From: Octopus vulgaris
Taxonomy: Eukaryota
Length of the DNA stretch: 64,000 nucleotides
Assembly: GCA_951406725.2 (NCBI GenBank)
Contig: OX597826.1
Coordinates: 1,736,001 to 1,800,000 of the forward strand
Direction: 5' to 3'
Shown: in pieces, positions 11,482 through 63,345 of the stretch
Position numbering within the stretch: the stretch's first letter is position 1
Layout: every line of letters begins with the position of its first letter
Made by a program: the position numbers and the translations under genes
Notes under the pieces: generated by a model
Databases searched by the model: none
What the model saw: only the letters and a program-made list of their open reading frames with translations
What the model was told of the DNA's origin: nothing

Positions 11482-12165
11482 TATGTTGGTGCAAACAGGA
11501 AAAGTAGAACTCAAAATATAAATATAAGTACATTTTTCATGTTTACTTGGCACAAGAACAAGAGAAATCTCTGTAAGAATCTAAATAAGAAAAAGAGTAA
11601 TGTTGAAAGAAGCAAAATTAACTTTCACAATGTGAAATTACACTGCCACCATTAGCAACAACAACAACAACAACAAATAAACATTGATTACTCCGATTTC
11701 AACAACTAGTATCAATAATAGTAATTTCTATGCTACATCAGCAGCACCACCACCAACCTCAGCAACAACCATCACCTACACCAACTTCATCACTATATCA
11801 CCAGTACCACTGCCAACATCAACACAACACTGCCACCAAAACTATATCAGTACTAATTACAACAAGACTAAGCCACCACCACCATCAATAACTCCACATG
11901 ACCACTAGGACCTATTTCAATACTACACCACAACTACCACTATCTTTTATCTTGCTTCAGTCATTAGACTGCGGCCATGCTGGGGCACCAGCTTGAACTT
12001 TTAGTTGAACGAATCAATCCCAGGTACTTTTATTTTTAAAGCATGGTACCTATTCTATCGCTCTCTTTTGTCAAACTACTAAATTACAGGGACAAAAACA
12101 CACCAACACCGGTTGTTAAGCAGTGATGGGAGACAAACACAAATACACACACACACACACTCACT

Positions 12166-12411
12166 TATTGGGTTGGTGCATAATTATTGAGGCTTTTTTC
12201 CATCAAATTTAATACAACAAAAACAATAACAATATTTAACAAAAACATCTATAAATGATGGTCTGACTGTCTGCCAAGCAAATAAGAAGCAGTAATTGAA
12301 GTAGATGGTGAATATGCTCTGGAATAATCATTTAAAGATGTTTTTGTTATTGCTTTTGTTGAATAAAATTTGTTGAAAAAAAGCCGCAAATAATTATGCA
12401 CCAATCCAATA
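12166..12411. mobile_element. mariner-type MITE
   Basis: TIRs TATTGGGTTGGTGCATAATTATTG / AATAATTATGCACCAATCCAATA with TA flanks, resembling Hsmar1/MADE-type ends. Confidence 0.75.
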
Positions 12412-12413
12412 AA

Positions 12414-17564: not shown

Positions 17565-18013
17565 ATGTGTGTGTGTGTATATCTATATCAATGACCCAAA
17601 CAGATGTCAGTGGGAACTCCAGAGCAAACACTGGATCTGCTCAGATGAATTATTATTGTCTGCCATGCTATTAATTATTTTCACTTCCTTCATTAAGTTT
17701 ATATACAGATCTACACACACACACACACACACATTCCTGGAGAGAAAGACATGATTTACAGCTAATGTAACTTAGAATCCATGTCCTCTTGCATGCATAT
17801 ATCTATATTTATATTAAAGCAATGCAGTTAATGTCCGGTCATAGAATGACCAATGGTTTCACACCCATGAACGCTGTAGCCTCCTGGATGTCTCGTCAGA
17901 TTCTAAAGCCAAAGACACATATATATATGTAGGTCCCGGGTTGGGTCGGGGTTAACCACAGTAAATAAGGTACTCAATACATAGCAGAGTAAATTAATTT
18001 ATTATATAGAAGG

Positions 18014-18064
18014 AGCTTCTACAGGACTAGAACTGTTTCATTCAAATGAAATCATCAGGAAGCT
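18014..18064 (-). ncRNA. type I hammerhead ribozyme motif (family A, minus copy)
   Basis: Identical reverse complement of 18119-18169. Confidence 0.65.
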
Positions 18065-18118
18065 TGGTGTCAAGAATAGTTTTGACATGTATAAATGCCA
18101 AAACTATTCTTGACACCA

Positions 18119-18169
18119 AGCTTCCTGATGATTTCATTTGAATGAAACAGTTCTAGTCCTGTAGAAGCT
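18119..18169 (+). ncRNA. type I hammerhead ribozyme motif (family A)
   Basis: Stem I AGCUUC/GAAGCU; core CUGAUGA; weak stem II UUC-AUUU-GAA; GAAA; stem III ACAG/CUGU with loop UUCUAGUC; cleavage triplet GUA. Confidence 0.7.
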
Positions 18170-18340
18170 CCTTCTATAAAATAAATATATATATATATAT
18201 ATATATGTTAGGAAGGGCATCCAGCTGTAGAAACACTGCCAGATCAGACTGGAGCCTGGTGCAGCCTTCTGGCTTCCCAGATCCCTGGTCGAACCGTCCA
18301 ACCCATACTAGCATGGAGAACGGACGTTAAACGATGATGA

Positions 18341-30416: not shown

Positions 30417-31200
30417 TACAAAATGGTATCAAGAACTTCCCAGAGTAGTCCTGTAGTGTGCCAATATATGGCAGCACATGGTTGAGTGCACAATGAGAGC
30501 TAGCAGTGACATTCACAAGGCAGTGTGTTGAGTGATATCGCTGGGTGTACTTCATAAGTTGTGAAATTTGTGTTTTTCTGATCAAGTATATGCTGTAGTC
30601 TGCAATTTTTATCATGGACAGAAAGTTGAAACAAAGAGCCAATGTGAAATTTTGCGTTAAACTTGGCAAGTCTGCTACAGAAACATTGAGCATGTGTTGG
30701 TAAGCTTATGGTCATGAAGCATTGAGTGGATTGGGCACTTCAAAAGCGGAAGAACTGTCTGCGGAAGATGATGAGTGAACTGGAAGACCTTCAAAGGAGA
30801 TGATGATAGAACTTAGGTAAATAAGTTATTTTTTATTACATGTAGCTGGCTCTATTAAACATAGCCGGTTCTATTAAACGTAGCCAGTTCTATTAAATGT
30901 GGCCAGTTCTATTAAACATGGCCGGTTCTATTAAACGTAGCCAGTTCTATTAAACGTGGCCAGTTCTATTAAACGTAGCCGGTTCTATTAAACGTAGCCA
31001 GTTCTATTAAATGTGGCCAGTTCTATTAAACATAGCCAGTTCTATTAAATGTGACCAGTTCTATTAAACATGGCCGGTTCTATTAAATGTGGCCAGTTCT
31101 ATTAAACATAGCCGGTTCTATCAAATGTAGCTGGCTCTATTAAATGTAATTAGTTTTATTAAATGTAATTAGTCTGGGAACTTTTTGATACTACCTCGTA
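30417..31200 (+). mobile_element. internally deleted mariner transposon
   Basis: TIR GTCTGGGAACTTTTTGATACTACCTCG|TA with a degenerate left mate; from 30614 MDRKLKQRANVKFCVKLGKSATETLSM..AYG..(FKSGR)..EDDE*TGRP = mariner N-terminal HTH. Confidence 0.85.
30840..31170. repeat. 19-bp minisatellite (GTAGCCAGTTCTATTAAAC), ~17 units
   Basis: Seen directly, inside the mariner next to its right TIR. Confidence 0.95.
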
Positions 31201-37620: not shown

Positions 37621-38209
37621 TGGACCCTGGCTATCACTCAGGTGACCAGGCACTCGTGACTGAAGATAAGCTAACCAGCTCAAAACTGAGTCAGTCTTGT
37701 GGTCCTGTTGTCTGCTAGAAGATGGTAGGGGTTCGCCCCACCCTGCTAGCAATATATATTGCAGATAAAGGATGCACCGATAACCAGCTGGTGGAAAGTC
37801 TGCCTGGTGTTAAACTAGTTGTAACATGGAATAAACTCTTTGATGTAGCAATTGACTTTACTTGTTAGCAGAGTTACAACTCTGATCTCTACTTGAGATT
37901 TTACAGCTACTATTTTGCTTGTTACAAATCAGTGACCAATGGTCACTTGGTTTACAATATATTGCTGGCTGGAGTGGACTGTGGCAATTGCTCTGGTGAC
38001 CAGGTACTTGCACTGAAGACTAGCCAACCAGCTCAAAACTGGGTCAGTCTTGCAATCCTGTAACCTGCTAGAGGATGGTAAGGGTTTCGCTTCCACTGCT
38101 AGCAATATATATTGTATATAAAGGGTGCAGTGATAACCAGTTTGTGGAAGATTTGCCTGGGATTAAACTAGTAGTAACAGGGAACAGTCACTTTGAGGTA
38201 GCAATTGAC
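37621..38209 (+). mobile_element. ~354-bp tandem monomers (about 1.7 copies), each with a degenerate type I hammerhead: candidate non-LTR retrozyme
   Basis: GGTGACCAGG at 37641 and 37995; hammerheads at 37654-37702 and 38008-38055: CUGAAGA, stem II AGCU-AACC-AGCU, (G>A)AAA, stem III ACUG/CAGU, triplet GUC. Confidence 0.7.
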
Positions 38210-44569: not shown

Positions 44570-44848
44570 TATTTACATTATTTACATTTGACGGATATTT
44601 GTCCTCATCTTGTTTGTTGTTAAGACAATGTTTTGGCTGATATACCCTCCAGCCTTCATCAGGTGTCTTGGGGAAATTTTTCGAACCTGGGTTCTCATTC
44701 CTAAGGTAAGGTGTCTTCCAAAGGTGTCCCCAAGACACCTGAAGAGGGCTGGAGGGTCTATCAGCCGAAACATTGTGTTAACAACAAATAAGATGAGGAC
44801 AAAATATCCGTCGAATGTAAATAAATCCTCATTTCTTAAATATAGAAT
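44570..44848. mobile_element. divergent (inverted) pair of Penelope pLTR-like units with minimal hammerheads (family B)
   Basis: Minus copy 44622-44667 and plus copy 44734-44779: GACAC CUGA(U/A)GA N GGCUGG...UCAGCC (G)AAA C(A)UU GUGUU. Confidence 0.7.
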
Positions 44849-45010: not shown

Positions 45011-45198
45011 TTTTATTAAAGCTGCAAAAATCTTCAGAAACTCTTACTCAGAGTTTCACGTTCCTGTTCGTCGGACAGTTGTGATGAATACTGCATTAAA
45101 ATGGTCAATTTTAATTTAGTATTCATCACAACTGTCCGACAAACAGGAATGTAAACTCTGAGTAACAGTTTGTGAAGATTTTTGCAGCTTTAATAAAA
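45011..45198. mobile_element. foldback with two family C hammerhead-like motifs (CCGACGA core)
   Basis: Arms 45011-45092 and 45118-45198; minus copy 45039-45080 AACUGU CCGACGA AC..GU GAAA CUC U GAG UA A(G)AGUU. Confidence 0.65.
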
Positions 45199-49282: not shown

Positions 49283-49487
49283 TTCTATATTTAAGAGATG
49301 AGGAATTATGTACATTGTTTACGGTTGATGAATATTTGTTCACATCTAATAACAACAGCATCAAAAAATACCATAGGAATGAGAATCCAGGTTCGAAATT
49401 TCCCCAAGACACCTGATGAAGGCTGGATGGTATATCAGCCGAAACGTGTTAACAACAAACAAGATGAGGACAAATATCCGTCAAATG
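49283..49487 (+). mobile_element. family B pLTR-like unit with an inverted 3' piece in front; hammerhead core 49408-49450
   Basis: CTGATGAAGGCTGGATGGTATATCAGCCGAAAC; 49283-49348 is the reverse complement of the unit's tail seen at 44790-44848. Confidence 0.7.
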
Positions 49488-50450
49488 GTAGCCCTATCGA
49501 ATATGCCATCAGTGACAGAGGCAGTCATGCTTACTAGCTATGGCGACAACACAAAAGTTGCACAGTCAGTCAAGGAAACCTCTGATGCTACGCTCTTACA
49601 GAAAGATCTAGATGCCATCTATAACATACAATTTAATGCAAGTAAATTCCAGGCTCTCCGCTACCAGTTAAGCACTGGTCAGGAATTACGACATCAGTGC
49701 GTTGGACCAAGTGGAGCAACGATCCCAGAATCAAATACGGTGCATGATCTTGGAATAGAAATGAGCAACAATGCCTCATTTCACACACATAACAACAAAA
49801 TGGTAGCAGTATCCAGAAGACTGGCCGGCTGGATTCTGAGAACCTTCTGGACAAGGGACCAAGAAGCTATGATGACACTATGGAAGTCATTTATCCTCAG
49901 CCAACTGGACTACTGCTCTCAGCTATGGTCACCTTATACTACAAGGACGATAGCAGAACTTGAAGCAGTCCAACGACGTTACACAAAGAAAATTACATCA
50001 ATGGAACGATTGAGTTACTCGGACGGGTTGAAAGAGCTGCGACTCCATTCCCTGGAACGAAGGTGGGAGAGGTATGCAGTGATATATATATATATGGAAG
50101 ATACTGGAAGGACTGGTACCAAACTTTGGAATAAAGAGCTATACCAGACCACGAACAGGACGTCACTGTGCCGACTGCTTCATCTCGGGCAAGGACGATG
50201 TACTGCAATAGCTTGGGTTTCAAGGGCCCACAGCTGTTTAACTGTCTGCCGAAGCATCTGAAGAGACTCCATGGAGTGGATGTAGACGTTTTCAAACGTC
50301 AACTTGATCTCTGATCGCCGAGATCCTGGATGAGCCAATATCTAAGCAAGAAACTCAAAAGAGGGCAGTAGCATCAAACCCCATCCTTCACCAAAAGCCG
50401 CTACGACAAAGGTGGAAAATGGAAAGAGGATTACAATGGCGGTGCTGTAG
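49488..50450 (+). mobile_element. 5'-truncated CR1/L2-group LINE: RT C-terminal region, inactive
   Basis: SYGDNTKV (decayed YADDTK), LQKDLDAIY, FNASKF, DLGI, LDYCSQLWSP, LEAVQRR.TK, LHSLERR..RY; frameshift at ~50090. Confidence 0.88.
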
Positions 50451-63111: not shown

Positions 63112-63345
63112 AAAATCTCCTGGGCAAATGATTTCAGTTGTTGCGCATAGGTTCTTTTCCCTGTTCCTAATCACGATGTCTGGTCTGTTACGCTTGCATT
63201 TTATTGAAGTGTTAATCGAGATCTTCCACCAGCTTTCTTTCATAAAATTGCGCGTTTATACTCTCCATGTCACCGTAGATCCTTTTTATTTGTCTCCTCA
63301 GGATTGTCAGCATCTTTGAAAAGCAATTTATCTGAAATAGACATC
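63112..63345 (-). mobile_element. RLE-type (R4/Dong/NeSL-like) non-LTR retrotransposon endonuclease fragment
   Basis: WWKISINTSIKCKRNRPDIVIRNREKNLCATTEIICPGD matches W...I.T.....NRPDIV.......C..IE...P. Confidence 0.8.

Follow-up and report, generated by a model that had tools for sequence, protein, structure and literature searches.

The fold-back at 17931-18186 is very probably a young insertion of a Penelope-like element (PLE), probably belonging to the Hydra clade, which entered a (TA)n tract as two 5'-truncated copies joined head-to-head. The two hammerhead motifs that it carries are likely passengers, predicted to be silenced in read-through RNA, and the locus is most likely the ordinary footprint of an insertion, not an RNA switch. 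Taken alone the locus matters little, being one of three fold-backs in the window, i.e. the whole 64-kb stretch of Octopus vulgaris DNA analysed. Its value lies in offering a clean example for studying the mechanism of PLE insertion, with two 3' ends that coincide with the two recurring ends of the family and a junction set on a palindrome, and in pointing to a young family, probably of the Hydra clade, that is missing among the published consensi examined.

Organization of the fold-back

The element measures 256 bp (17931-18186) and resides inside (TA)n. Its components, in window coordinates, are listed below; X1 and X3 are contig sets described in the next section.

17919..17930, plus strand: left copy of a candidate 12-bp target-site duplication, within the (TA)n microsatellite; the same 12-mer is found at 18197-18208, and its low complexity keeps it a candidate
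17931..17996, minus strand: one-sided 3' tail (long end) of about 66 nt, with high family depth over 17925-18002 in the X1 and X3 contigs; the right arm has no counterpart
17997..18091, minus strand: left arm, formed by the 3' end of the element with 5' truncation; the minus strand is the sense strand
18014..18064, minus strand: left copy of the type I hammerhead motif, a descriptor match, with C3 at 18058 and H17 at 18020
18085..18098, no strand: junction of the inversion, with a family-borne 10-bp palindrome at its centre; two non-pairs in this copy
18092..18186, plus strand: right arm, a second 5'-truncated 3' end, whose terminus mirrors 17997, the short end of the family
18119..18169, plus strand: right copy of the type I hammerhead motif, with a predicted cut after A18163 (GUA)
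18187..18208, plus strand: (TA)n target, holding the right copy of the candidate duplication at 18197-18208

The symmetry centre of the fold-back falls between 18091 and 18092. The two identical 80-bp arms described in an earlier, sequence-only reading of this DNA were confirmed, 80 of 80 pairs matching between 18005-18084 and 18099-18178. Over the entire fold-back 92 of 95 pairs are complementary, the mismatched ones being 18089/18094, 18085/18098 and 18004/18179. Two of the three mismatches fall within the central 7 pairs (P=0.014), and both result from changes in the right arm with respect to the family sequence. Junction repair, or later breakage of the palindrome tip, are candidate causes of the clustering within 18085-18098. 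The centre of the fold-back is a near-palindrome rather than a neutral spacer. AATAAA, correctly placed by the same reading beyond each hammerhead, is found at 18180-18185 on the plus strand and at 18003-17998 on the minus strand, and marks the short end of the family. The extent previously assigned to the structure, 17997..18186, is right at the right end and too short at the left end, where the element runs about 66 nt further as a one-sided tail. The tail hosts the motif TTGAG(C/T)A at 17977-17971, and folds no better than shuffled sequences (z -1.05). The plus strand of 17931-18091 and the minus strand of 18186-18092 are both antisense to the element. According to a check for minisatellites and tandem repeats, hammerhead units do not form a head-to-tail array at the locus. 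Within the left flank, 17813-17917 is itself a diverged element repeated to a moderate degree, and its minus strand carries a CUGACGA core at 17899.

Extent of the family in public sequence data

The interval 17730-18100 was compared with 4 of 24 public runs, two of which provide contigs from two organisms (X1 and X3), two raw reads (X21 and X22); X1 contigs were filtered, and about 80% of them were read. In the X1 and X3 contigs the family depth spans 17912-18093, far above the unique flank. Summed contig depth reaches up to 1.7 million versus 49 on the flank, depth not being equivalent to copy number. The family extends about 66 nt to the left of 17997, and enters (TA)n at two recurring ends, located before 17919 (15 contigs in X1, 19 in X3) and before 17997 (12 contigs in X1, 11 in X3), respectively. 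The terminus of the right arm, 18186, is the exact mirror of the second recurring end, and the locus therefore has one long end, the tail, and one short end. Other copies (4 contigs in X1, 3 in X3) continue beyond 18093 in a non-inverted manner, and the continuation completes a perfect 10-bp palindrome, 18087-18096, centred exactly on the centre of the fold-back; the background of palindrome centres in the window is 73/60921 positions. The interval 18094-18100 is covered by no X1 or X3 contig, and the junction of the locus is without independent confirmation. X1 carries the left flank exactly, in records spanning 17730-17860 and 17834-17919 with no other letters. The raw-read runs contain 3 (X21) and 16 (X22) matching reads among 12.9 million each, none of which lies on the unique flank, and leave the high copy number unconfirmed. 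In X22, reads on 17953-18014 are head-to-tail repeats of tail-like sequence, with joints going back 35-46 nt and the hammerhead not included, and suggest the presence of a tail-derived satellite, within a set of 16 matching reads.

Among the positions of 17930-18093 listed as variable at a frequency of at least 4%, the copy analysed departs from the family majority at one, in loop II (18136/18047, both arms), in keeping with the recent insertion already suspected from the letters. Other copies of the family were not found by blastn within the window, and an exact 28-nt pattern drawn from the arm had no matches in collections of metagenome, genome and viral contigs. Pfam searches of 140 window ORFs, picked by length and complexity, gave 0/140 matches at the cut-off, and one weak sub-threshold match. 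Neither a PLE protein nor a host exon was found among these ORFs, short exons being prone to escape such a search. A minus-strand frame, 18093-18046, considered as a putative endonuclease C-terminus, was set aside, being unmatched in the published Hydra consensi and differing from Hydra in spacing; its end falls within the hammerhead, where the N7 variant occupies a third codon position. A C-x-H readable at the junction was similarly discounted, as it is spaced from Asn and from the hammerhead in a way unlike Hydra.

The hammerhead motifs

Comparisons with published systems, here and below, refer to excerpts of the papers cited. In the right arm, stem I is formed by 6 bp between AGCUUC (18119-18124) and GAAGCU (18164-18169), and the core by CUGAUGA (18125-18131) and GAAA (18144-18147). 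U10.1 (18132) and U11.1 (18143) face each other, and this U·U encloses a 3-bp stem II with a 4-nt loop. Stem III consists of 4 bp (ACAG/CUGU), and is closed by a near-palindromic loop of 8 nt. The triplet is GUA, H17 being A18163 on the plus strand, and 18020 in the mirror copy on the minus strand. The conserved core (CUGANGA, GAAA, NUH) and stems I-III in type I order are thus all present. A strict type I descriptor, composed after the motif was seen, found two matches in the 64-kb window, both in this element, and none in 300 dinucleotide shuffles. The notion of one type I hammerhead per strand is upheld by the complete core present in both arms. The G10.1-C11.1 pair is absent, as previously pointed out, and is replaced by U18132·U18143. 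Its absence had been regarded as unusual, and this does not stand. Natural U10.1-U11.1 closure has been reported (Perreault 2011, PMC3088659), and a count by eye in the table of Hydra-clade PLE hammerheads (Craig et al. 2021, PMC8557442) gives 14 of 25 families with U·U closure, 4/25 with ACAG/CUGU as stem III and 11/25 with GUA.

A search with hammerhead models had been suggested along with the sequence-only reading. No Rfam hammerhead model matched, either window-wide at the gathering score, or at E<=10 on the locus or on a single arm. Rfam matches to miRNA families at the locus are below gathering scores, and reflect the hairpin only. In the X1 and X3 contigs, variants at a frequency of at least 4% are found within the 51-nt motif at four positions only, N7 (18054), loop II (18046 and 18047) and loop III (18031). 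All four are free sites of the hammerhead (P about 0.003-0.014). At the same threshold the stems are invariant, with no compensatory pair, in contig data from a young family which is nearly invariant beyond the hammerhead as well. The restriction of variants to free positions may be taken as modest support for the hammerhead, and as modest only because compensatory changes are lacking and the family varies little elsewhere; youth alone could explain invariant stems.

Predicted RNA folding

The hairpin formed by the full element has a predicted energy of -164.6 kcal/mol, versus -81.6 kcal/mol when the hammerhead is forced, at a cost of about 83 kcal/mol. Every hammerhead pair has a predicted probability of 0.000 in the complete element, and stems I and III do not exceed 0.04 even in the right arm alone, flanking arm sequence included. 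As a matter of geometry, the antisense arm is transcribed ahead of the ribozyme in either read-through direction; the 80-bp hairpin would therefore form, and cleavage would be blocked. The hairpin is predicted to exclude the ribozyme fold, a condition of suppression rather than a balanced switch, and the earlier idea that dsRNA formation competes with self-cleavage appears overstated.

The minor allele of loop II (18136/18047) found in this copy favours an off-path 5-bp hairpin occupying G12-A14, at a probability of about 0.6-0.7. The predicted probability of stem II is 0.02 with the minor allele, versus 0.13-0.18 with the majority allele; with 3 bp and such a value, stem II is as weak as originally described. 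The near-palindromic stem III and loop could dimerise, the predicted energies being -12.8 kcal/mol for the cofold versus -1.4 kcal/mol for the monomer. The 80-bp duplex holds 57 A residues on the plus strand.

A model for the insertion

The PLE origin with an inverted copy, first proposed from the letters, is sustained by the head-to-head arms, the junction palindrome and the one-sided tail, and membership of the Hydra clade is likely, judging from shared motifs. In the model favoured here, the GIY-YIG endonuclease of the element would nick both target strands about 12 bp apart, and each 3'-OH would prime cDNA synthesis on element RNA. The left cDNA would start at the distal site, generating the tail, the right cDNA at the proximal site, ending near AATAAA. 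The two same-sense cDNAs would anneal at the 10-bp palindrome of the family, and then copy each other. For two same-sense cDNAs, annealing requires a self-complementary sequence, and the position of the junction on the palindrome would be explained by this constraint. Arms copied from each other in a single insertion would have identity built in. Homogenisation by gene conversion, which had been envisaged for the locus, is therefore unneeded, arms from one insertion and one source family being identical at the outset. Both halves are antisense to the element, as would be required of first-strand cDNAs. The hammerhead may normally serve the RNA of the parent element, and the 80-bp hairpin, if transcribed, may represent a substrate for ADAR or small-RNA pathways.

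In a possible, still doubtful reading, the stub represents the 3' terminus of a Hydra-clade PLE family that is young and undescribed, and is at the same time the direct footprint of two-strand target priming with cDNAs joined at the family palindrome. Clean annealing leaves the clustering of the two central mismatches unexplained. A PLE origin has to be reconciled with the finding that no RT or GIY-YIG ORF is linked to the family (0/140 window ORFs at the Pfam cut-off), with the lack of compensatory stem changes, with the uncovered interval 18094-18100, and with the low number of X21 and X22 reads. Unmatched Hydra consensi, a different hammerhead in Hydra-1_Obim, an over-long tail and the negative Rfam searches count against a PLE of the Hydra clade as well. 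If the reading is correct, counts over the many fold-backs in the genome could be used to test how inversions and tails of PLEs arise, and each such insertion would silence its own ribozyme and leave a long dsRNA target. Such loci, if located in transcribed regions, would supply the editing or silencing machinery with additional long dsRNA.

Alternative explanations

The same PLE stub could have been inverted by self-priming, i.e. through a single cDNA, or an antisense template, snapping back at the palindrome. This route, which overlaps with the preferred explanation, seems somewhat unlikely. Junction palindromes are interpreted as the outcome of self-priming on an antisense template in PMC3846280, and the minor allele at 18136/18047 is common to both arms, as if derived from one template; yet a shared minor allele is also expected from two RNAs of one source locus. 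A snap-back copy must moreover stop by coincidence at the second recurring end, since 18186 mirrors 17997, and a purified PLE extends both target strands (PMC11167929). Self-priming does not account for the clustered central mismatches either, and the two routes are not distinguished by the data at hand. The element could alternatively be non-autonomous, a retrozyme-like sequence or a PLE parasite mobilised in trans, with no coding parent of the same sequence. The very high contig depth, the lack of any ORF found, and the head-to-tail repeats of tail-like sequence seen in X22 are in line with this hypothesis, as is the description of retrozymes as non-autonomous PLE derivatives (bioRxiv 10.64898/2026.07.22.740005). 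The locus is inverted and truncated, whereas retrozymes are tandem arrays of hammerhead units, and the few X22 repeats exclude the hammerhead; the hypothesis is regarded as unlikely.

Other readings move further away from a PLE insertion. Insertion at TA of a palindromic DNA transposon (MITE) whose hammerhead-like core arose by chance would account for the long terminal symmetry, the TA-rich target and the failure of Rfam models to match. It is largely refuted by the asymmetric profile of the family, as the tail is one-sided and other copies continue non-inverted past the centre. The absence of descriptor matches in 300 shuffles, the confinement of variation to free hammerhead positions and the close resemblance to Hydra-clade hammerheads make it highly improbable. 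To about the same degree it is improbable that the fold-back is an artefact of assembly or library construction. The interval 18094-18100 is absent from X1 and X3 contigs, though X1 has the exact left flank; but X1 was filtered and about 80% read, and the site may be polymorphic for the insertion. Three of 95 arm pairs differ, the tail is one-sided, the flanks are distinct, a candidate duplication is present, and older, diverged fold-backs of the same plan reside in the window. That the locus works as an RNA switch, with self-cleavage set against the formation of dsRNA or editing by ADAR, is scarcely credible. The core is intact on both strands, and the 80-bp duplex has 57 A residues on the plus strand. 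Pairing probabilities of the hammerhead are in contrast nil in the complete element and negligible in the right arm alone, and this copy has the minor allele favouring the off-path hairpin over G12-A14. The insertion is furthermore young, its architecture recurs twice in the window in a decayed form, and no host exon was found among the 140 ORFs.

Other repeats in the window

The window is rich in microsatellites and repeats, and hosts two further, older head-to-head fold-backs, with 85/91 and 97/108 identical arm positions. A relaxed hammerhead script, run on four other regions, returned one match (44739, plus strand); motifs at 45011-45198 and the others in the 44.6-, 49.4- and 61.1-kb regions were annotated by eye as decayed cores. 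The fold-back at 45011-45198 (85/91) carries in each arm a decayed type I hammerhead, the left one with a CCGACGA core, and the palindromic stem III resembles that of Hydra-clade motifs. AATAAAA stands at the end of each arm, and TTGAG(C/T)A recurs in an extension present on the left arm alone. The head-to-head fold-back at 44578-44824 (97/108) belongs to a third family, single copies of which are located at 49413 and 61121. Its motif is similar to min-HHRs in having an extra nucleotide after A9, G10.1-C11.1 and a long stem II. The copy at 49413 is fused to a decayed reading frame, 49383-50261, with no Pfam match, which we take to be LINE-like. An inverted repeat at 12165-12412 lacks a hammerhead, and presumably is a stub resembling mariner-type terminal repeats. 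Additional CUGANGA cores lie in repeated context, and form a divergent pair at 63301 (minus strand) and 63625 (plus strand), and a 353-bp direct pair at 37660 and 38013 (plus strand). A 19-bp minisatellite of 16.7 copies spans 30851-31167.

Comparison with known systems

Inverted insertions of this type have been described in the rotifer Adineta vaga, where EN+ PLEs form inverted repeats arranged head-to-head, with palindromes at the junctions, a tail attached to one of the inverted pLTRs, and target-site duplications of 8-10 bp (PMC3846280). The octopus locus shares with them head-to-head arms, a junction palindrome and a tail on one arm, to which the 12-bp candidate would add a short duplication. 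It differs in that truncation has left halves of about 95 and 160 nt with no ORF, and the tail measures about 66 nt versus 31 (PMC3846280). An inverted 5'-truncated copy and a one-sided tail are features of PLEs in general (PMC8557442); the tails described for PLEs are 30-40 nt long, shorter than the one of about 66 nt found here.

Dual hammerheads located on opposite strands 100-700 bp apart have been reported in metazoan PLEs (Cervera and De la Pena 2014, PMC4209133). As with min-HHRs, a type I motif resides in PLE termini, close pairs lie on opposite strands, the palindromic stem III and loop would permit dimers, and low activity is expected. Unlike min-HHRs, the motif pairs 4 bp in a genuine stem III, its stem II is short, and both G10.1-C11.1 and the extra nucleotide after A9 are absent (PMC4209133). 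Retrozymes are presented as non-autonomous derivatives of PLEs (bioRxiv 10.64898/2026.07.22.740005). The locus is akin to non-LTR retrozymes in being non-coding and PLE-linked, and in carrying a type I hammerhead; it differs from their head-to-tail tandem arrays in being head-to-head and truncated.

The biochemistry of Poseidon PAc from Anolis offers a precedent for the favoured model. On AT-rich DNA the purified enzyme, a predicted dimer, cleaves each of the two strands and extends it (Frangieh et al. 2024, PMC11167929). Reverse transcription proceeds from two sites bounding the tail. The PAc hammerhead is active only with the protein, and insertion in vitro proceeds without its cleavage (PMC11167929). 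Two start sites bounding the tail and an AT-rich target are common to PAc and the octopus locus, for which we infer two-strand extension. PAc belongs to a different clade, and its hammerhead overlaps the start of the ORF (PMC11167929).

The Hydra clade is the closest match. At the protein level this clade is recognised by RWK, DKT and CxCX5C motifs, by the lack of CCHH and by its place in the RT phylogeny. A preference for (TA)n is given for nearly all its families, and is not exclusive to them, being found in Naiads as well (PMC8557442). Penelope-9_HM has a 3-bp stem II with a 4-nt loop, and Penelope-13_HM an inverted copy bearing the hammerhead (PMC8557442). The (TA)n target, the type I hammerhead near the 3' end, the U·U closure, the ACAG/CUGU stem, the GUA triplet and the inverted truncated copy are all shared by the octopus element (PMC8557442). 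By eye, two Acropora families, Hydra-1_Amil and Hydra-2_Amil, carry in their 3' ends a motif similar to the TTGAG(C/T)A of the tail. Points of divergence are loop III, of 8 nt versus 1-3 nt in the published table, a weaker, A/U-rich stem II, and the fact that the element is known here without an ORF. Short motifs of the family that were tried did not match the published Hydra consensi, and literature searches found no description of the family. The Hydra clade is present in Octopus, where it is represented by Hydra-1_Obim (PMC8557442). The hammerhead of Hydra-1_Obim is different from the motif described in this work, and the family of the locus is therefore a separate one; every structural feature of the locus is already in print.
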